A DNA stretch of 36,931 nucleotides, from the NCBI GenBank assembly GCA_031376145.1, contig JANMDF010000072.1, positions 1-36,931 of the forward strand, given 5' to 3'. Origin of the DNA: Alphaproteobacteria bacterium. Its GTDB lineage: Bacteria > Pseudomonadota > Alphaproteobacteria > JAJTHO01 > CANGXP01. Of this stretch, positions 3,178-11,070 are shown piece after piece (position 1 is the first letter of the stretch; every line of letters begins with the position of its first letter). The notes under the pieces are model-generated. The model saw only the letters and a list, made by a program, of their open reading frames with translations, ran no database searches and had not been told where the DNA came from. The position numbers and the translations under genes are program-made.

Positions 3178-4746
3178 ATGTTATCCGCCACAACCAACAC
3201 TGCCGCGCTGACCGCGCAACGCTTCCTGGATCAATCCAGTTCAATGGCGTCGTCATCGATTGCCAAGATGTCATCGGGTTCCCGTATTGTTAAGGCTTCT
3301 GATGACGCGTCATCATTGGCGATTGGTAACAAGTTGCGGGCTGACATCTCTGCCTTGCAGCAGGCCACACGAAATGCCTCACAGGGTGCATCACTGTTGC
3401 AGGTTACCAACGGTGCTATTGACCGAATCGGCGATATTCTGACCCGGTTGAAAACCTTGTCTACACAGGTGGTGAACGGCTCACTGTCGACACCAGAGCG
3501 TCAGTTTGCCCAACAGGAATTTACCGAGCTGGTAACCCAGATTGACCAGATTTCTTCACAAACCCGCTGGAACAGTGTATCCATGCTGAACGGGGGTGAT
3601 AAAACCCTGGCCTCTACCAACACCCTTGGCTCAGACGTCAGTGCCGGCGTGTCCGGTGCCAGAGGCAGTGCAACACCAGGTGGTTATTTCAACCCGACTA
3701 CAGCCAGTAACGTGTTTAATACCTTTACTGGCACAGTTGATGGCCAGGCTAAAAGTGTAACAGTGGTGCAGAACGGCTCAGCCAACCAGTTTAAAATCAA
3801 TATCGAAATCGGTAATCAGACCTTTGAAGGCTATGCCTCATACAGCCAGGCCAGTGGTGGCAGTATTACGATGACCAGCACCACCAACAGCCATAATACT
3901 TTTAGAATTGTCAACAACGCGGCAGCCCTGGGTACCAGTGCGGCCACGCTGGAAAGTGACCTGGAAAGTGCGCTGTCTCTGGATACCACCACGTCGCCAC
4001 CGGCAAGTTTCCAATCAAAAGCATTAACGAATGCCAACGCTGCTGCCCTGCTGGAAGCAGGGGCGACCACACTGGGCAGTGTGATCACCGCTACCGGCGC
4101 GGCTGTGGATGGTATTTACAACCTGACCTCACGGCACGATACGGCAACGGGAACCACTACATTTCGTGTGCAGCATGAAGATGGCAGTGTGTATCAGGCA
4201 ACCCTGCCTAATGCCAGTACTGCCACGGGTCAGCAAACGATTGTTTTCAGCAATGGTACTGAATTGAAGCTCGCTGAAGCACAGGCTCAGGCAACCGCAA
4301 CAACAAACCTGGAAGGTGTACGTTTTGAAGTCACCCGTGGCTCAGCCACCACCATGGATTTCCAGGTTGGTGTGAAAGCCACGGATACGATTACCATCAG
4401 CTTTGTGGCCATGACCTCACAAAGCCTGGGGCTGGATGTCTTGAATATTGAGACGCAGGCGGGTGGTACAACGGCTTCAGCGGCGGTATCCGATGCGATT
4501 AACAAGGTAAACATTGCCCAGGCACAATTAGGGTCGATTCAAAGTCGAATGGAATATGTACAGAGCAACCTGTCAACCATCATCGAAAACCTGTCCGCTG
4601 CCAAAGGGATCTTCCTGGATGTGGATATGGCACGTGAGATGACTGAATTTACCAAACAGCAAACCCTGATGCAGGCTGGCGTTGCCATGCTGGCACAGGC
4701 CAACCAGATGCCACAGTCGCTGTTGCGACTGATCCAGGGTGGTTGA
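3178..4746 (+). CDS. fliC: Flagellin (long variable central domain)
   Basis: 522 aa. The conserved N-terminal D0/D1 reads SSGSRIVKASDDASSLAIGNKLRADISALQQATRNASQGASLLQVTNGA. The C-terminus reads AQLGSIQSRMEYVQSNLSTIIENLSAAKG...QQTLMQAGVAMLAQANQMPQSLLRLIQGG. The centre (~300 aa) is T/S/A/N-rich. Confidence 0.9.
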   Translation: MLSATTNTAALTAQRFLDQSSSMASSSIAKMSSGSRIVKASDDASSLAIGNKLRADISALQQATRNASQGASLLQVTNGAIDRIGDILTRLKTLSTQVVNGSLSTPERQFAQQEFTELVTQIDQISSQTRWNSVSMLNGGDKTLASTNTLGSDVSAGVSGARGSATPGGYFNPTTASNVFNTFTGTVDGQAKSVTVVQNGSANQFKINIEIGNQTFEGYASYSQASGGSITMTSTTNSHNTFRIVNNAAALGTSAATLESDLESALSLDTTTSPPASFQSKALTNANAAALLEAGATTLGSVITATGAAVDGIYNLTSRHDTATGTTTFRVQHEDGSVYQATLPNASTATGQQTIVFSNGTELKLAEAQAQATATTNLEGVRFEVTRGSATTMDFQVGVKATDTITISFVAMTSQSLGLDVLNIETQAGGTTASAAVSDAINKVNIAQAQLGSIQSRMEYVQSNLSTIIENLSAAKGIFLDVDMAREMTEFTKQQTLMQAGVAMLAQANQMPQSLLRLIQGG

Positions 4747-4836
4747 TACTGCTGGATAACAGGTTTCCAAGTTCCAAAAAGACTACTGCCTGGAATCAGG
4801 TGGCGTAATATCACATTGCTTTCCCCAAGCCCAAAA

Positions 4837-4867
4837 AACCTGGTGTTTCCCCACACCAGGTTTTTTT
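4837..4867. terminator. Bidirectional rho-independent terminator
   Basis: A perfect 10-bp stem (aacctggtgt 4837-4846 pairing with acaccaggtt 4853-4862) around a 6-nt loop. It is followed by a T7 run on the plus strand and preceded by an A6 run, which is a T-run on the minus strand. It can terminate both the flagellin gene and the minus-strand islet operon. Confidence 0.75.
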
Positions 4868-5003
4868 GGTTACACCGCTGGCATCAGTATGGTCAAAATT
4901 CTTTGCGAACTTTAATCCCGTACGGCTTTTGAGTGCTATATAGCCAATTGAATAATTGACTGCATACTTGCAGCAACACCGCGTAATTCCGGCCTGGCAG
5001 GCA

Positions 5004-5055
5004 TTACCCCCCTACGCAATCGTTGAGATACTTCCAGATTTGTATACTCGCGCAC
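5004..5055 (-). repeat. Degenerate third copy of the lepA 3' terminus (putative distal att remnant)
   Basis: The minus strand reads GTG CGC GAG TAT ACA AAT CTG GAA GTA TCT CAA ... GGGGGG TAA. The lepA end reads ATG CGC GAA TTC GGG AAT GTG GAA ATT CCG CAA ... GGGGGGG TGA. That is 20/32 ungapped nt, with REYTNLEVSQ against [10 protein letters not shown]. Both share the boundary heptamer tcgcgca and a C-run followed by a stop. An internal ~17-nt deletion is implied. On statistics alone this is only marginal; its position and orientation add weight. Confidence 0.4.
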
Positions 5056-5249
5056 CAGCCGTTCGGCCACTGCTTCACTGAGAGCACTGCGTCATGCCGA
5101 ATGCAGAAAGCATGCATTTGTAGGGTGTGGAACTGCTGCAAAATCGCCTGTTCAACCAGCAGTCCCTCAACGCGGGCGGCAATGGTGGTTTGTTCGGATT
5201 CGGGCAAGGTTTTGATGTAATCATCAAGGGAAATGGGGTTGTAGGACAT
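5004..5249 (-). pseudogene. Possible decayed XRE-type antitoxin/regulator ORF running into the lepA remnant
   Basis: 81-aa ORF with no SD motif. The N-terminus MSYNPISLDDYIKTLPESEQTTIAARVEGLLVEQAILQQ resembles the leader of small XRE antitoxins. The expected HTH appears only in the other two frames (AFGMTQ, then SALSEAVAERLV), which implies frameshifts. The 3' end is built from the lepA-like remnant read out of frame. Confidence 0.3.
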
Positions 5250-5260
5250 AAGCTAAATAA

Positions 5261-5704
5261 TTAAATTACAAGGCTAACATCAGGGATTTCCACAAACCAC
5301 TGTGCAAGGCGAGATATTTTTTTCTGGTTGGCTTTTGAGAACGTTCCCCAAACTTCGCCATGATAAGGATTTTCTGGTAGAGGATCATAACCAACCTGAA
5401 AACTCAATTCTCGCAATTTCCCAACATTAAGCAAAATTGAACCTGTAAATTTCGGATTACTGACAAACGTTTTTGCGTCAATTCCGTTTTGTTCAATCAG
5501 ATTTTTAAGATCAACGGACATGCCTCGATTGCCAATGCTCGAGGGCTTATAAAGCATAGAAGAAACTCGATGAGGAATGGCTGGTGGCGAAGGAAAGCAG
5601 GACTCCAAAGATACTCTTCTGATAACAAAGTGTTCATCAAGAATATCTTCATGATTGTGGGGAATTACTTCTCCATCAGCATTACGCGGCGGCGGCTTTA
5701 TCAC
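5261..5704 (-). CDS. Hypothetical 147-aa protein (candidate effector/toxin of the trio)
   Basis: GTG start at 5704, preceded by GGAGG 6 nt upstream. The start lies 23 nt inside the upstream ORF, which suggests coupling. I recognise no family. The sequence contains YKPSSIGNRGMSVD and PENPYHGEVWG. Confidence 0.6.
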   Translation of the reverse strand: MIKPPPRNADGEVIPHNHEDILDEHFVIRRVSLESCFPSPPAIPHRVSSMLYKPSSIGNRGMSVDLKNLIEQNGIDAKTFVSNPKFTGSILLNVGKLRELSFQVGYDPLPENPYHGEVWGTFSKANQKKISRLAQWFVEIPDVSLVI

Positions 5705-6194
5705 TGCTCGCCTCCACGGTTTCTGCGACCCATTTCAGAGCAGTCAAAAAATCATATTCTAAAAGTTGCTCCTCACCATCTTCACCCGTGCTAGGCGTAC
5801 AATGCCATGCTTTTACTTGGTTGGGAGCAATTATATGTAATTCGATATCTATGCCTTCTACATGCCACTCTATCTGCAGGTCACCGTTAAAACCTGGAAT
5901 AATGCTAGGCATTGTAGTATTCTCATTCGCACAAATAAGTCCTAATAGCTTTAGCGTAAAATGTGCATTAGGCGCACTTACAGGTCGCGCTCTGTATCCA
6001 TCCCATCCTACGGGAAGCTGCGCTAGGCTATAAACTCTTTCTATTGCATCATCAAACCACTCCAAGGGTGTAGTGGTCATCCTTAAGTATTGAGTATTAT
6101 TTAGGCGTGTAGGCACGTTTGAAGACCTATTGGAGCGGTCTATGGTAGATGTAGTGCAATCATCTGAGGCGGTACTATTAGAGTCTAACAACAT
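5682..6194 (-). CDS. Hypothetical 170-aa protein (WDGY-motif protein)
   Basis: The ORF track starts at TTG 6209. I prefer ATG 6194, which forms a TAATG stop/start overlap with the upstream gene and follows GGGGGAAG. Motifs are LPVGWDGYRARPVS and GFNGDLQIEWH, with an S/T/N-rich N-terminal tail. Confidence 0.6.
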   Translation of the reverse strand: MLLDSNSTASDDCTTSTIDRSNRSSNVPTRLNNTQYLRMTTTPLEWFDDAIERVYSLAQLPVGWDGYRARPVSAPNAHFTLKLLGLICANENTTMPSIIPGFNGDLQIEWHVEGIDIELHIIAPNQVKAWHCTPSTGEDGEEQLLEYDFLTALKWVAETVEASSDKAAAA

Positions 6195-7012
6195 TATTTC
6201 TTCCCCCAATGTCGGTGTGCCGCATCAGTGGTAATGGCATCAAAGTTCTGAACAATTAATTCACGCCCTTGTCCTAAAAATGCGATTGCGGCTTGTAGAG
6301 ATGACTCCTCAGGTTTTCCTCGAACAGTCATGTTTAGCCTTAATAATCTCTCGCCTTTTGCATTTACCGCGATTGCGCTTTCACAAATCAAACGTCCGCA
6401 AGGCTTATTATTTTTATCGTCTATTGTAATACGAAAGGTATGCTGAAAATCTGCCACTATCGTTTTTTTTTCAAGAAATGAAAAATCTAAAAATTTCAAC
6501 CATTTATTAGCGGTGATATTTTGGTTCTCAGGATGCTCTAACGGAATATGATTTATATAGGTAATTTCCGTTTGATTAATGTTTAAACCATTCCCATCAA
6601 ACCCCTTGAAAAATTCATCAAGCTTTCCAGCTTCTTGCGTAAATTTCGCAATGATACTTTCATAACGCGGATATGGTGTGTCATGCTCATCAATTTTTCG
6701 CCAATTATGCAAAAATCTATCATTCTGAAATTGAATGAGTTCATTTTGATCCCTTGATAGAAACCAAAAACGATCATGTGTAGCACCCGTTATCAAACCA
6801 AAGGGAGATTGTTCTATAGGAAAACCGAAATGCTCAAAAATTGGGGGGAGAGGATGATGCTCTTTTACATCTGGGTAATTTTCTTTATAAAGATTCCAAA
6901 CTTCTCCAGCATGAATTTGTTGATACCCTTGAGGGGTGCTGAACTGAATACCCAAAACAACCTCATGTAGAGGTGGTTTTTCATAATCTGGAAGGTGTGT
7001 GGGTCTACTCAA
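6194..7012 (-). CDS. TIGR04255-like uncharacterised protein
   Basis: The ORF track gives 6194-7045 with a TTG start. A better start is TTG 7012, with AAGGAG 7 nt upstream. The N-terminal PDYEKPPLHEVVLGIQF and the C-terminal FDAITTDAAHRHW resemble the TIGR04255 family as I remember it. Confidence 0.65.
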   Translation of the reverse strand: MSRPTHLPDYEKPPLHEVVLGIQFSTPQGYQQIHAGEVWNLYKENYPDVKEHHPLPPIFEHFGFPIEQSPFGLITGATHDRFWFLSRDQNELIQFQNDRFLHNWRKIDEHDTPYPRYESIIAKFTQEAGKLDEFFKGFDGNGLNINQTEITYINHIPLEHPENQNITANKWLKFLDFSFLEKKTIVADFQHTFRITIDDKNNKPCGRLICESAIAVNAKGERLLRLNMTVRGKPEESSLQAAIAFLGQGRELIVQNFDAITTDAAHRHWGKK

Positions 7013-7110
7013 AATAATGCTCCTTTTCTTTGCTGACTCTAACAAGAAAAAAGTTAAAAATATAGAGCCATTCAGTTATTTATATTGGCTGTGACTAAAA
7101 AGAAATGCAA

Positions 7111-7180
7111 TCTCACCCCCCCGTCTTCAGCACCTCAATAAACGCACTTTGCGGGATTTCCACATTCCCGAACGCGCGCA
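7111..7180 (-). repeat. Displaced copy of the last 22 codons plus stop of lepA (internal att-like repeat)
   Basis: A position-by-position hand alignment to 8468-8537 gives 65/70 identity. It translates as [22 protein letters not shown], against [22 protein letters not shown] in lepA. Confidence 0.9.
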
Positions 7181-7185
7181 GAATT

Positions 7186-8373
7186 TTAATTGAAATCCGG
7201 CATCACTCGTTTCAGGAATTCTTCAAATAACGGCACAGTAAAGGCTGTATCGCCGTGGGCAGGGCTGTAAATCATGCCTTTTTTGATAAGTTGTGCCCGC
7301 AGTGGCGCAATGCGGCTAACAGGCACATTCAATTTCTCGGCAATATCACCTGAACGTTGCGGCGTGCCGCCCAATTCCGCCAATGCTCGTACATAGCGCT
7401 TCTCGCTTGGCGTAAGGCGGTCGAAGCGTACACGGAAAAAGTCTTTGTCTAGTTTATTAATGGCGCGTGTTGTGGCGGTATCTATATCTTCCTTAGTGAT
7501 TTTCTTTGTGGATGCCACATTCCAGGCCTGATACCCCCACTCCTGCAAAAAATAAGGATAGCCTTTAGTAATATTCAGAATTTCTGTAAGTGCATCAGGG
7601 GTAAAGCTAACGCCTTGTTGCAGTACGGGCGCTTGTAGCGCCTGCATAGCGTCTGCTGCCAGTAATTGCCCTACTTGGGGGTAGGTAAACAGCCGTTCGG
7701 CATAAGACTTAGAATTGCCCGCTTTTCCCACCAATTGCGGCAGCCCTGCCCCCACCACTACAAGCGGCAACCCTTTTTGCGAGATGCGATGCACCGCCAT
7801 AATCAGTGCACTAAGTTCGGTTTCCTCTAAATATTGTAATTCATCAATAATAATGGCAATGCCCGTGTTGCGGCTGGCAGCAGCCTCACCTACGGCGATA
7901 AATAAATCGGCCAAGTCAAACTCTAAATCCCCGCTATCAGCCACCCCTTTTTCTGGTTCAGCAATGCTGAAGTCAAAAAGATCATATTTAATTTTGAACT
8001 TGCTGACAAAACTTTGCAGCACGCGCAATGCGCTTTTTACTTGCGTGCTAAGACGTTCCGCATTGTCAAGTCTTAGCAAAATACGCCGCAAGTGCGGCAT
8101 CAACAAGGCAGGGAGTTTTTTGTTACTTCTGTCTTCAATAGCCTCAATAAACGCTGTTTCATACCCCTTGGCGCGGGCGATATTCTCAATTTCATTGAGC
8201 AATACGGTTTTACCCACGCCGCGTAGACCCACCAGCAACATGCTTTTTTCGGCACGACCATTTTTAATGCGCTCCAACGCCACACGCGCCTGCTCCAGAA
8301 TTTCTTGCCGTCCTGCCAGTTCTGGCGGCGGTGTTCCTGCGCCCGGCGCAAAGGGGTTATGCTCTACGTCCAC
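7186..8373 (-). CDS. P-loop ATPase (ORC/Cdc6- or STAND-like AAA, PF01637/AAA_16 type) with a C-terminal wHTH-like region
   Basis: 395 aa with a GTG start. The N-terminal NPFAPGAGTPPPELAGRQEIL is typical of this ATPase class. Walker A is GLRGVGKT and Walker B is IAIIIDELQ. The C-terminal LTPSEKRYVRALAELGGTPQRSGDIAEKLNVPVSRIAPLRAQLIKKGMIY looks like a wHTH. Confidence 0.8.
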   Translation of the reverse strand: MDVEHNPFAPGAGTPPPELAGRQEILEQARVALERIKNGRAEKSMLLVGLRGVGKTVLLNEIENIARAKGYETAFIEAIEDRSNKKLPALLMPHLRRILLRLDNAERLSTQVKSALRVLQSFVSKFKIKYDLFDFSIAEPEKGVADSGDLEFDLADLFIAVGEAAASRNTGIAIIIDELQYLEETELSALIMAVHRISQKGLPLVVVGAGLPQLVGKAGNSKSYAERLFTYPQVGQLLAADAMQALQAPVLQQGVSFTPDALTEILNITKGYPYFLQEWGYQAWNVASTKKITKEDIDTATTRAINKLDKDFFRVRFDRLTPSEKRYVRALAELGGTPQRSGDIAEKLNVPVSRIAPLRAQLIKKGMIYSPAHGDTAFTVPLFEEFLKRVMPDFN

Positions 8374-8392
8374 TATACAAACCTTATGAGGA

Positions 8393-8421
8393 ATTATAAG
8401 AGTTATCTTATGTATTAGTAA
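8393..8421 (-). promoter_or_regulatory. Candidate sigma-70 promoter of the ATPase gene
   Basis: On the minus strand: TTACTA (8421-8416), a 17-nt spacer, then a perfect TATAAT (8398-8393). It lies about 20 nt upstream of the GTG start, within a very AT-rich spacer. Confidence 0.4.
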
Positions 8422-8467
8422 GATTGATAATATACTATAATATTGCTATAAGTGGCAAGAGATTTTT

Positions 8468-8537
8468 TCTCACCCCCCCGTCTTTAGCACCTCAATAAAC
8501 GCGCTTTGCGGAATTTCCACATTCCCGAATTCGCGCA
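8468..8537 (-). repeat. Functional lepA 3' terminus, the proximal copy of the 70-bp repeat
   Basis: See 7111-7180. It covers the last 22 codons, the TGA stop and 2 nt beyond it. Confidence 0.9.
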
Positions 8538-10269
8538 TTTTCTTCTTTCCTTTTTTCTGTTTATCCAGCAGCTTACGCTTTCTTGTTACATCACCACCAT
8601 AACAGCGCGCCAGCACATCTTTGCGGAAGGCCTGCACCGTCTCACGGGCAATAATTTTCGCACCAATCGCGGCTTGAATGGGGATTTTGAACTGGTGCTG
8701 CGGCACCAGATCTTTCAGTTTTTCACACATCGCCCTGCCCCGCTTTTCAGCGGCAGACTTATGAACCAGAATCGACAATGCATCAACAACATCACCATTC
8801 ACCATGATAGACAGTTTACATAAATCGCCTTCCTGGTAGCCATCCAGGTGATAATCAAAGCTGGCATAGCCACGGCTGACAGACTTCAGGCGATCATAAA
8901 AATCAAACACCACCTCATTGAGGGGCAGTTTATAGACCAGCATGGCGCGTGTGCCGGTATGGGTCATGGTTTCCTGCACCCCGCGCCGTTCGGTGCACAG
9001 TGTCAGAATATTGCCGATATATTCATCAGGCACAAAGATGGTGGCCTTAATCCAGGGTTCTTCGATGGTGGCTATCTGTGATGGATCTGGATAATCGGCA
9101 GGGTTATGCAGCTCATAACTCTTACCGTTGGTTTCGGTAATGCGGTACACTACGCTGGGGGCGGTAGTGATCAGATCCAGGTTAAACTCGCGCTCCAAAC
9201 GCTCCTGAATAATTTCCAGGTGCAGCAACCCCAGACACCCGCAACGAAAACCAAAGCCCAGCGCCGCCGAAGAATCCGCCTCATACTGAAAACTGGCATC
9301 GTTCAGTGCCAGCTTGCCTAAACTATCGCGCAAATCCTGAAAATCCGCCGCATCCACGGGAAACAGGCCACAGAACACCACCGGCGTTGATGGCTTGAAC
9401 CCATCCAGCGGCTGTTCCACAGGTTTTGCTTCCAGGGTAATCGTATCCCCCACCCGCGCATCAGCAATTTCCTTAATGCTGGCGGTCAGAAAGCCAATCT
9501 CACCGGCATTCAACGCTGCCACATGCAGGGCTTTTGGTGTAAAAATACCGACTTTATCAACGGTATGGATGGCACCCGTGCCCATCATCAGAATTTTCTG
9601 ACCGCTTTTCAGCACACCACTGACAACCCGCACCAGAATGACCACACCCAGATATTTATCATACCAGCTGTCAATCAGCAGGGCTTGCAGCTTGTCTGTT
9701 GTGGGTTGTCTGGGGGCAGGCAGACGGTGAACAATCGCCTCCAGGGTCTCTTCAATACCAATGCCACTTTTAGCGGAAATCAACAGGGCATCAGAGGCAT
9801 CAATACCGATCACATCTTCAATCTGCTGTTTAATGCGCTCTGGTTCAGCGGCAGGCAGATCAATTTTGTTGAGTACGGGGACAATCTCATGGTGATTGTC
9901 AATGGCCTGATAGACGTTGGCCAGCGTCTGCGCCTCCACCCCCTGGCTGGCATCCACAACCAGCAAGGAGCCTTCACAGGCTTTGAGCGACCGGCTCACC
10001 TCATAGGCAAAATCCACATGCCCGGGCGTATCAATGAGATTCAACTGATACGTCTGGCCATCTTTGGCTTTATAGGTAAGACGCACGGTTTGTGCTTTGA
10101 TTGTAATGCCACGCTCTTTCTCAATATCCATTGAGTCAAGAACCTGCTCGGTCATTTCCCGGGCTTCCAACCCCCCGCAATGCTGAATAAGCCGGTCGGC
10201 CAAGGTGGATTTACCGTGGTCAATATGGGCGATGATGGAGAAGTTACGGATATGAGAGATGTCGGTCAT
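8470..10269 (-). CDS. lepA: Elongation factor 4 (LepA)
   Basis: [27 protein letters not shown]..., then DTPGHVDF and NKID GTPase motifs. The length from ATG 10269 is about 599 aa. The track ORF extends to 10518, but that leader overlaps brnA and is not LepA-like. Confidence 0.95.
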
Positions 10270-10292: not shown

Positions 10293-10604
10293 TTAGCGAG
10301 GCAAGGCAGGGAAATCGTCCCCGCGCCATTTTCCATTCTGCTGTCGTTCTTCGCTGATTTTCTCCTCCAGCAATATCTTCATCAGCGATTGATACGGCAC
10401 ATCGCGTTTGTTGGCCATCACCTTCAGTGCATCCAGAAGATGTGCTGGCAGGCGAAGAGAGATGGTGTGGGTAGAGGGTTTGAGGTTTGGAAAAACAGCA
10501 GAAGCCGCGCTTGTCCAAGGAATATAATCCGTGGAATCATGGGTTTGCCAGAAGGCATCTTCTTCTGCCTCTGTATTAAAAAGTGGGGGGTGTTTTTTGC
10601 GCAT
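10293..10604 (-). CDS. brnA: BrnA-like (CopG/RHH-type) antitoxin
   Basis: Starting at ATG 10604: [28 protein letters not shown]...[34 protein letters not shown]. This is the typical BrnA layout. It overlaps the brnT 3' end by 29 nt. Confidence 0.7.
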
Positions 10605-10908
10605 ATATAGCCCTCTCTTTGCGGTGCATATCGCGCAGCGAAATGATGCGCAGAAAATTCTCTCTGACCGTGAAGACCACAAACAATAAACGTCCGGCGT
10701 TTGTTTGTCCCAAGGCGTAATACCGTAGTTCTGTTGAAGAGTGTCTTGCGTCATCCCCCACCACTAGAGGGCTGTTAAAAAATACTTCTTCAGCCTCTGC
10801 ATTGCGTACCCCATGTTTATCCAGGTTCTTGCGGGTATTGCCTTCATCCCACAAGAACCCTTCGGCCGTGAAGGGCAAAAAAAATCGCGACACCATTGTT
10901 GTATACAA
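10576..10908 (-). CDS. brnT: BrnT-family (DUF497) toxin
   Basis: FLWDEGNTRKNLDKHGVRNAEAEEVFFN...[43 protein letters not shown] matches the BrnT/DUF497 signature (WDxxKxxxNxxKHGV...ER...R.ISAR). ATG 10896 is an alternative start. Confidence 0.8.
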   Translation of the reverse strand: MYTTMVSRFFLPFTAEGFLWDEGNTRKNLDKHGVRNAEAEEVFFNSPLVVGDDARHSSTELRYYALGQTNAGRLLFVVFTVRENFLRIISLRDMHRKERAIYAQKTPPTF

Positions 10909-10963
10909 CCATAATATACAGGAAAGGCAATATTTTTGCAGCGCATACCCATCGTATACTTAT

Positions 10964-10982
10964 CGCACATGAAGAATGTGCG
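10964..10982. promoter_or_regulatory. Perfect 7-5-7 inverted repeat (candidate operator upstream of brnTA)
   Basis: cgcacat-gaaga-atgtgcg, 56 bp upstream of the brnT ORF start. Its 14-nt core acatgaagaatgtg recurs at 11057-11070. Confidence 0.4.
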
Positions 10983-11055
10983 ATGTAACGCTCAAACGCC
11001 GCGCGGGCTTTGCCGCTCGCAAAGTATTTTTACAAATCTTCAGATGCGAGCGGTA

Positions 11056-11070
11056 TACATGAAGAATGTG
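11056..11070. promoter_or_regulatory. Second copy of the acatgaagaatgtg core (weaker palindrome)
   Basis: An exact 14-nt repeat of 10967-10980, 90 bp away. GTATAC hexamers sit at 10954, 11053 and 11081. Confidence 0.3.

Follow-up and report, generated by a model that had tools for sequence, protein, structure and literature searches.

Small genomic units without mobility genes, lying between direct repeats of 46-423 bp that are single-copy in genomes with an empty site, have been described as arising through insertion with long target duplication (Nobusato et al. 2000, Gene 259:99; Furuta, Abe and Kobayashi 2010, NAR, PMC2853133). Many of the cases come from naturally competent species, the cargo consists of restriction-modification genes and no mechanism has been settled; breakage of DNA by the restriction enzyme was put forward as the common cause, and experimental evidence was still lacking for most of the proposed life cycle (Furuta et al. 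2010, PMC2853133). Another account lets the class cover 'other DNAs' and offers tandem duplication plus recombination as an alternative (PMC3457768); we found no later literature that settles the mechanism. Here we analyse a unit with a single ATPase gene that lies between two copies of the 3′ end of lepA in the alphaproteobacterial contig JANMDF010000072.1. This 36.9-kb contig of a metagenome-assembled genome (MAG) otherwise holds housekeeping genes, and the whole stretch of 36,931 nt is called the window below. We assign the unit to the class of insertions with long target duplication; its cargo family is new to the class and displays the pattern with unusual frequency. We conclude that the ATPase cassette probably entered at the lepA stop codon by such an insertion, through homology and host recombination, with the adjacent AT-rich gene trio a separate acquisition and a proposed third copy of the lepA end a product of chance.

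Two other described processes come close to what is seen here. In natural transformation, homology-facilitated illegitimate recombination brings in foreign DNA by combining one homologous anchor with one illegitimate joint and uses no recombinase (summarised in PMC2884548, Fig. 7a). Such a process would explain the variable joints, the occurrence of either polarity and the allelic differences in the anchor that are described below; unlike the process as known, the joint would here have to fall inside the anchor and give a duplication. The events studied in 2002 by de Vries and Wackernagel and by Prudhomme and colleagues were reportedly mostly insertions with deletion of recipient DNA. Islands that an integrase places at a 3′ end, whether of a tRNA gene or of a protein gene, resemble the cassette in that 3′-end repeats (attL/attR) bracket the insert and the gene stays intact. 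The cassette differs from them in lacking an integrase, a common core within the family and recurrent use of lepA, and its repeats can equally be gene 5′ ends or intergenic DNA.

A duplicated lepA end around a single ATPase gene

The following features of the window carry the argument.

8470..10269, minus strand: lepA (elongation factor 4), intact, 599 aa; Pfam GTP_EFTU, EFG_C, LepA_C
8468..8537, minus strand: direct repeat copy 1, the final 22 codons of the intact lepA and its stop codon, with a weaker tail to 8457
8374..8467, minus strand: AT-rich cassette leader (promoter scan)
7186..8373, minus strand: AAA+ ATPase with a predicted C-terminal winged helix, 395 aa (P0001), the sole cargo gene
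7181..7185, minus strand: cassette right arm, 5 nt (AATTC) between the ATPase stop codon and copy 2
7111..7180, minus strand: direct repeat copy 2, a lepA 3′ fragment that is displaced and without function, with a weaker tail to 7100
5004..5055, minus strand: claimed third lepA copy, unsupported and taken as a chance resemblance

A sequence-only reading of the window had claimed that the lepA end at 8468-8537 recurs at 7111-7180 with 65 of 70 nucleotides identical. This is borne out by a repeat search of the window against itself, which returned 7100-7180 and 8457-8537 in the same orientation as an 81-nt match of 88% identity at a spacing of 1357, the 70-nt core holding the 65 identities, and by blastn-short, which aligned copy 1 with copy 2 over 62 nt at 95% (E=4e-24). 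The repeat occurs just twice in the window and its sequence is lepA coding DNA; the copies differ in four codons, three of them by synonymous third-position changes and the fourth at the boundary codon (GAA/GCG). Copy 2 is also 90.9% identical to the lepA ends of three relatives (L168-170) and 82-86% identical to those of four others (L171, L172, L084 and L085). Copies 1 and 2 are genuine lepA-derived direct repeats. At the protein level, the window LepA shares 91% identity with P0122 and 77% with the LepA of a Holosporales MAG. Across the junction between cassette and copy 2, the last codons of the ATPase pair with part of copy 2 in an 11-nt inverted repeat (7150-7160 and 7192-7202, 91% complementary).

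The same reading had placed a third, degenerate copy at 5004-5055 and had counted its failure in a proper alignment significance test among the things that would refute the reading; the copy does fail. No blastn-short match falls there (word size 7, E<=1000), the local alignment score of 10 is equalled or beaten by 281 of 2948 window tiles, the site ranks 46th to 146th among 3664 tiles when long gaps are made cheap, and no relative's lepA matches it. Without gaps, 21 of 32 positions agree, which is the best match in the window apart from the true copies; judged by the tail of the observed distribution, the whole window should hold about 0.2 matches of this quality, and an expectation of about 0.006 is reached only when the search is limited post hoc to the 2.2-kb interval. 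On these alignments the third copy looks like chance, and the three copies of the earlier observation are reduced to two.

Between the true copies lies a unit of 1357 bp, made up of one gene and its own promoter-like leader. The outer edge of the leader has a promoter-like TTGCCA (8458-8453), an 18-nt spacer and TATATT (8434-8429), and iterated TTATA/GTATA-type boxes precede the ATPase start codon; the AT-rich stretch upstream of the ATPase amounts to 83-94 nt. At the other end the right arm is as short as in two other loci (5 nt in L127, 8 nt in L145). We found no inverted repeat pairing the two ends of the unit, and no recombinase domain among window open reading frames (ORFs) of at least 150 aa, whether in the whole 36.9 kb or in either of the two intervals that the sequence-only reading had delimited. 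Its statements that both intervals hold accessory genes only and that neither encodes a recombinase are thus confirmed, and its islet at the lepA 3′ end survives as one recombinase-less ATPase unit within lepA-terminus direct repeats; the second tandem insertion does not survive. Nor does its suggestion that the unit is an eroded remnant of an integrase element, as the unit begins at a promoter-like -35 hexamer, ends 5 nt after the stop codon and is a minimal cassette that in many genomes is packed between housekeeping genes.

The product of the sole cargo gene, P0001, exceeds the Pfam gathering thresholds for both AAA_16 (PF13191; 59.6 bits, cut-off 32.6) and ATPase_2 (PF01637; 34.8 bits, cut-off 33.2), and its residues 320-372 give a weak, winged-helix-like match to MarR. 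An AlphaFold (AF2) model with a predicted local distance difference test (pLDDT) score of 75 had PAB2304, Orc1/Cdc6, RuvB and SSO1545 as its top Foldseek matches. The best structural matches were 2qen, a Walker-type ATPase of Pyrococcus, and 2fna, an AAA+ ATPase of Sulfolobus, both of which we take to be PF01637 members; the template modelling (TM) score against Orc1/Cdc6 was 0.43-0.45. The model thus predicts an AAA+ base, a lid and a winged helix, an architecture like that of Orc1/Cdc6, of the PF01637 proteins PAB2304 and SSO1545, and of RuvB. By analogy, the gene may also be likened to those of origin-binding initiators, in that it adjoins an AT-rich stretch of iterated short boxes. Unlike Orc1/Cdc6, the protein has no partner genes and its sequence similarity is confined to the P-loop region; it falls below the Orc1/Cdc6 NCBIfam cut-off (TIGR02928, 28.4 bits against 181.3, residues 16-69 only). 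Domain searches of P0001 found no nuclease, recombinase or methylase domain. Assignment to a known defence system was considered and dropped, the PADLOC matches being weak (mad8, 7.8e-7). Rfam, tRNA/tmRNA and PDB sequence searches found nothing, and a literature search on PF01637 returned nothing relevant. Exact-sequence look-up of the window LepA and ATPase gave no match, perhaps because the database versions start elsewhere (P0121 has 619 aa).

Flanking repeats across the ATPase family

The ATPase family is large, with more than 8000 proteins at E<=1e-10 in a first search and, at E<=1e-30, 966 clusters (50% identity) whose members are almost without exception about 395 aa long; it is found on 101 plasmids of Proteobacteria, Actinobacteria and Chlamydiae, and plasmids of Sphingobium or Legionella strains carry a homologue. 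We compared the upstream and downstream DNA of each gene in 87 loci with ATPase relatives, the comparison loci being mostly metagenome assemblies. Tight direct repeats of 41-353 bp and 75-97% identity flank the gene in L082, L103, L114, L117, L122-124, L127, L129/130, L145, L146, L158 and L162. Repeats of at least 40 bp were present at 10 of 59 dereplicated ATPase loci with adequate flanks against 4 of 832 other ORFs (250-600 aa, in 167 loci), an odds ratio of 42 (p=6e-10).

The flanking repeats are unrelated to each other and to lepA, and derive from the gene that adjoins the cassette. In L122 and L145 they correspond to the 5′ end of a downstream gene, in L114 and L127 to the 3′ end of a convergent one, in L146 to a divergent gene's 5′ end and in L162 to intergenic DNA, and the truncated copy lies on either side of the cassette, depending on the locus. 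In the window and in L145, L122 and L127, one edge of the repeat falls on a start or stop codon. The arms of the cassette measure 83-262 nt and 5-388 nt and its ends are not conserved; in loci that have no repeat (L173-188) the minimal unit sits between housekeeping genes with at most 3 nt to spare downstream. What recurs is the leader. Across 74 non-identical loci it has 38% GC where the flanks have 56%, and TTATAC/GTATAA hexamers occur in the 74 leaders about 8-fold over shuffles, clustered at -80 to -10, with 2.7 boxes per 120 nt against 0.73 in shuffled sequence and 0.13 in the flanks. Tandem amplification of the cassette was seen in none of the loci.

A comparable arrangement exists with other cargo. 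In L190, a HigB/HigA toxin-antitoxin module lies between two copies of the rnfH 3′ end, which form a direct repeat of 205 nt and 93% identity (2261-2465 and 3494-3698; unit 1233 bp), directly upstream of a TIGR04255 module, which parallels the window layout with other genes. L191 was considered as the pre-insertion state of L190 and set aside, as its contig begins inside the repeat. In L082, the ATPase lies between copies (576-648 and 2171-2243) of a 73-nt unit of two facing hairpins that resembles a repetitive extragenic palindrome and contains no gene end; here the cassette may have inserted between dispersed repeats, without a target duplication. An 81-aa, fragment-sized cyclic nucleotide (cNMP)-binding ORF lies about 100 nt upstream of the ATPase in L181-L187, where a convergent coproporphyrinogen oxidase gene ends 3 nt past the ATPase stop codon; the ORF may be another disrupted target.

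Several comparisons bear on whether lepA is itself a target. The closest LepA relative (P0122, 91% aa identity) has a single lepA terminus followed by an ACT-domain gene, with no ATPase there, and the closest ATPase (P0002, 78%), from the same samples as P0122, is downstream of uvrA and flanked by the 73-nt palindromic repeat. The lepA site is likewise empty in an 80% relative, and L168-172 have one lepA terminus and no ATPase, their downstream genes being unlike those of the window so that the alignment covers only one flank. Among 82 other alphaproteobacterial lepA loci, none has a second coding terminus within 10 kb of lepA and none has the ATPase nearby. The sole other linkage of the two genes is in Holosporales MAGs, where lepA is followed by two glycosyltransferase genes, the ATPase and metG, without a lepA repeat. 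A contig scan with the window LepA gave none closer than 75% among the matches listed, and a literature search on lepA as an integration site returned nothing relevant. Because the repeats around the cassette elsewhere are unrelated and none of the 82 lepA loci is duplicated, the lepA end is not an attachment site, as the sequence-only reading had supposed, and its idea that flagellin/lepA junctions of relatives might hold other cargo between lepA-terminus repeats met with no duplicated lepA end in those loci. We regard lepA as no general target, and at most as a homologous anchor within the window's lineage. In one Holosporales MAG (L084, 2917-3553), an insertion of about 637 nt that resembles a miniature inverted-repeat transposable element (MITE) directly follows the lepA stop codon; its terminal inverted repeats measure 16 nt (GGGCACCTCTATTAAC), AATA appears to be duplicated, and L085 lacks the insertion.

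Set against the published class, the window unit conforms in its form. Where Furuta et al. (2010) ask for repeats above 30 bp, those of the window are 70-81 nt long with 88-93% identity, and where they ask for an insert below 20 kb without a mobility gene, the insert has 1357 bp and one ATPase gene. As in that class, the repeats are variable (41-353 bp in our loci) and often overlap the ends of neighbouring genes. The cargo differs: the original class is built on restriction-modification systems, and here it is a solitary nuclease-free ATPase or, in L190, HigBA. A further difference is that the repeat copies are mostly allelic-looking here, whereas in several published cases the two copies resemble one another more than they resemble the empty site.

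A probable route for the cassette

The differences between repeat copies suggest how the cassette was joined to its target. In five independent coding cases, 36 of 46 differences fall at third codon positions (p=5e-10), and the codon changes comprise 31 synonymous and 11 non-synonymous ones; L123 has 12 synonymous and no non-synonymous changes, though the copy upstream is a 5′ fragment without function. If a fragment decayed where it lay, most of its changes should be non-synonymous. The synonymous bias therefore makes the truncated copies look like pieces of other functional alleles, and this suggests, as far as sequence comparison goes, homology-assisted integration over a staggered cut. In one pair of strains that are 99.4% identical overall, the 188-nt truncated copies (L122 3171-3358 and L123 383-570) differ by eye at about a dozen sites; in L122 the upstream copy is mosaic, agreeing in part with the L123 upstream copy and in part with the intact one, while the two intact copies look identical by eye. 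The mosaic points to gene conversion between the flanking repeats.

We infer that a route through homology and host recombination is the most likely one. The incoming DNA, from a related genome, would already be linked to part of the target gene and could take one of two forms. A circle bearing a lepA 3′ fragment and the cassette could integrate by a single crossover within the 70-nt homology; alternatively, linear DNA from a relative that has the cassette after lepA could be anchored by recombination in the body of lepA, its other end being sealed by an illegitimate joint 70 nt before the resident stop codon, as in homology-facilitated illegitimate recombination. Either form would leave an intact lepA, the cassette and a displaced resident lepA end. 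The repeat would then be target DNA adjoining the insertion, with no att site involved, and the AT-rich trio would have been acquired earlier and separately.

Several points weigh against this account. No genome was found in which the empty site is conserved on both flanks, and the insertion is for this reason inferred, not observed. The control ORFs are mostly core genes, and part of the enrichment of repeats may reflect how recently the ATPase gene moved. The synonymous bias would also be expected if the insertion itself had duplicated the target and the intact copy had afterwards been exchanged for another allele by recombination, and against that mixed model the bias has only p=0.025. Three independent loci have right arms of 5, 5 and 8 nt, and a left edge lies at the -35 hexamer; this could mean defined ends and a dedicated mechanism, or just as well selection acting on random joints. 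The preponderance of metagenome assemblies among the comparison loci counts on the same side.

Other explanations have to be measured against the same evidence. It is very unlikely that the lepA 3′ end is an att site for a tyrosine or serine recombinase supplied in trans, at which two successive integrations left three att-like copies. Two genuine direct repeats of a gene 3′ end do bracket foreign DNA; the 21/32 match at 5004-5055 has the predicted place and orientation, begins at the same heptamer and would arise by chance at about 0.006 if the search is restricted post hoc to 2.2 kb; and the ATPase is a few genes downstream of lepA in the Holosporales MAGs. That match is however non-significant in unbiased tests, the 36.9 kb hold no recombinase, none of the 82 lepA loci has a duplicated end and the Holosporales loci have no lepA repeat. 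Repeats around the cassette elsewhere are also unrelated in sequence and length, and with ten other independent loci unrelated there is neither a shared att core nor a reused site. A DNA transposon or insertion sequence would be expected to show terminal inverted repeats and a fixed short duplication; the cassette has no terminal inverted repeats, and its duplications range over 41-353 bp. The ATPase itself might make the cassette a self-mobilising single-gene element of a kind not recognised before: the AAA+/winged-helix protein would bind the GTATAA boxes of its own leader, promote excision, copying or strand invasion without a nuclease or recombinase of its own, and drive insertion, for example through widely spaced nicks or replication restart, so that the variable-length duplication is a true one. 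We consider such an autonomous element unlikely. The lack of a nuclease or recombinase domain, arms of 83-262 and 5-388 nt without conserved ends, repeat copies that look allelic and not newly duplicated, the same architecture around HigBA with no ATPase, and the lack of tandem amplification all speak against it, and they have to be set against the strong association of the family with flanking repeats, the conserved iterated-box leader, the recurring minimal boundaries (83-94 nt upstream, 5-8 nt downstream), the resemblance to DNA-remodelling ATPases of the Orc1/Cdc6 and RuvB type of fold, and the spread over phyla and 101 plasmids.

The arrangement might also have arisen without any transfer, from an ancestral ATPase neighbour of lepA by tandem duplication and then recombination or deletion that left a stray lepA end, or it might be an assembly chimera; we think this quite unlikely. 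The closest relative by LepA (91%) has no ATPase at lepA and carries a copy elsewhere, and the synonymous differences between the copies are unexpected from a recent local duplication, even though lepA and the ATPase are linked in the Holosporales MAGs and the ATPase has a GC content resembling that of its genome. As for a chimera, which a MAG contig invites, no repeat of more than 18 nt is common to lepA and the 3′ end of the ATPase, so that a false join based on k-mers is unlikely, and the same architecture is present in more than 10 independent assemblies.

Neighbouring modules and the meaning of the insertion

Between copy 2 and the flagellin gene lie the AT-rich trio and the remaining features of the block.

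6194..7045, minus strand: TIGR04255-family protein (NCBIfam), first gene of the trio (database version P0241, 272 aa)
5682..6209, minus strand: second gene of the trio, about 170 aa
5261..5704, minus strand: third gene of the trio, 147 aa
5136..5249, minus strand: truncated HTH_37/XRE-type antitoxin gene, N-terminal 38 codons (tblastn with the L082 HTH_37 protein)
5004-5249, minus strand: 81-aa chimeric ORF that starts with the truncated HTH_37 N-terminus
4830..4869, no strand: 17-nt inverted repeat (I2), arms 94% complementary, 84 nt past the flagellin stop codon
3178-4746, plus strand: flagellin gene (Flagellin_N/C domains)

The trio has a GC content of 33-44% against about 50% in its flanks. 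Its first product scores 74.9 bits against TIGR04255 (cut-off 30) and is 49% identical to homologues in L189 and L190; the second is 47% identical to the product of a 165-aa gene that follows TIGR04255 in L190 and L191 and has a weak PADLOC match to the C-terminus of the candidate PDC-M32A (E=4e-8); the third is 46% identical to the product of a 148-aa gene in L189 and 43% to that of a 104-aa gene in L190/L191, each adjoining a TIGR04255 gene. The homologues recur jointly in L189, L190 and L191, which are unrelated genomes, and the trio is therefore a conserved three-gene module. This TIGR04255 module is foreign and separate from the ATPase cassette. No lepA repeat lies at the far end of the trio, and with the third copy non-significant, the idea of two successive lepA-3′ insertions bounded by three copies falls. 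The block was also said to end at the flagellin terminator, and here the 17-nt inverted repeat at 4830-4869 fits and marks its far edge.

Within the chimeric ORF, 5136-5249 matches the L082 HTH_37 protein at 61% over 38 aa (tblastn, E=6e-11) with no similarity further on, and no helix-turn-helix signal was found in any continuation of the 38-codon fragment. That the claimed third copy might be part of a decayed HTH_37 antitoxin gene was considered and rejected, the homology being limited to the first 38 codons. On the other side of the block, a BrnT toxin and CopG-type BrnA antitoxin pair lies directly upstream of lepA (10293-10908, minus strand; Pfam E=5e-27 and 2e-29), and the closest lepA relatives have a different 118-aa gene in its place. 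Further on, a 106-nt element at 10955-11059 is 86% identical to L083 2083-2188; it contains hairpins and its ends resemble TGTATAC/GTATA. L083 has this element and the otherwise collinear L082 does not, which is MITE-like behaviour. A reading of the window gene order as a circular permutation of a relative's, and hence as a trace of a circular intermediate, was rejected when the shared 106-nt block proved to be this MITE-like element.

The interest of the locus lies more in the ATPase cassette family than in lepA, as a model for a long-unexplained mode of insertion. The nuclease-free ATPase cargo and the HigBA module of L190 indicate that this mode of insertion is not tied to restriction enzymes; that the signature surrounds this abundant, uniform and nuclease-free cassette at about 17% of its loci, and surrounds a toxin-antitoxin module as well, argues that a restriction enzyme is unnecessary. 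There is also a caution for annotation, in that a duplicated gene end beside foreign DNA is on its own no proof of an att site or of a degraded integrase element. The family supplies hundreds of natural events in which repeat copies can be compared, and the 1.3-kb unit is small enough for direct testing.

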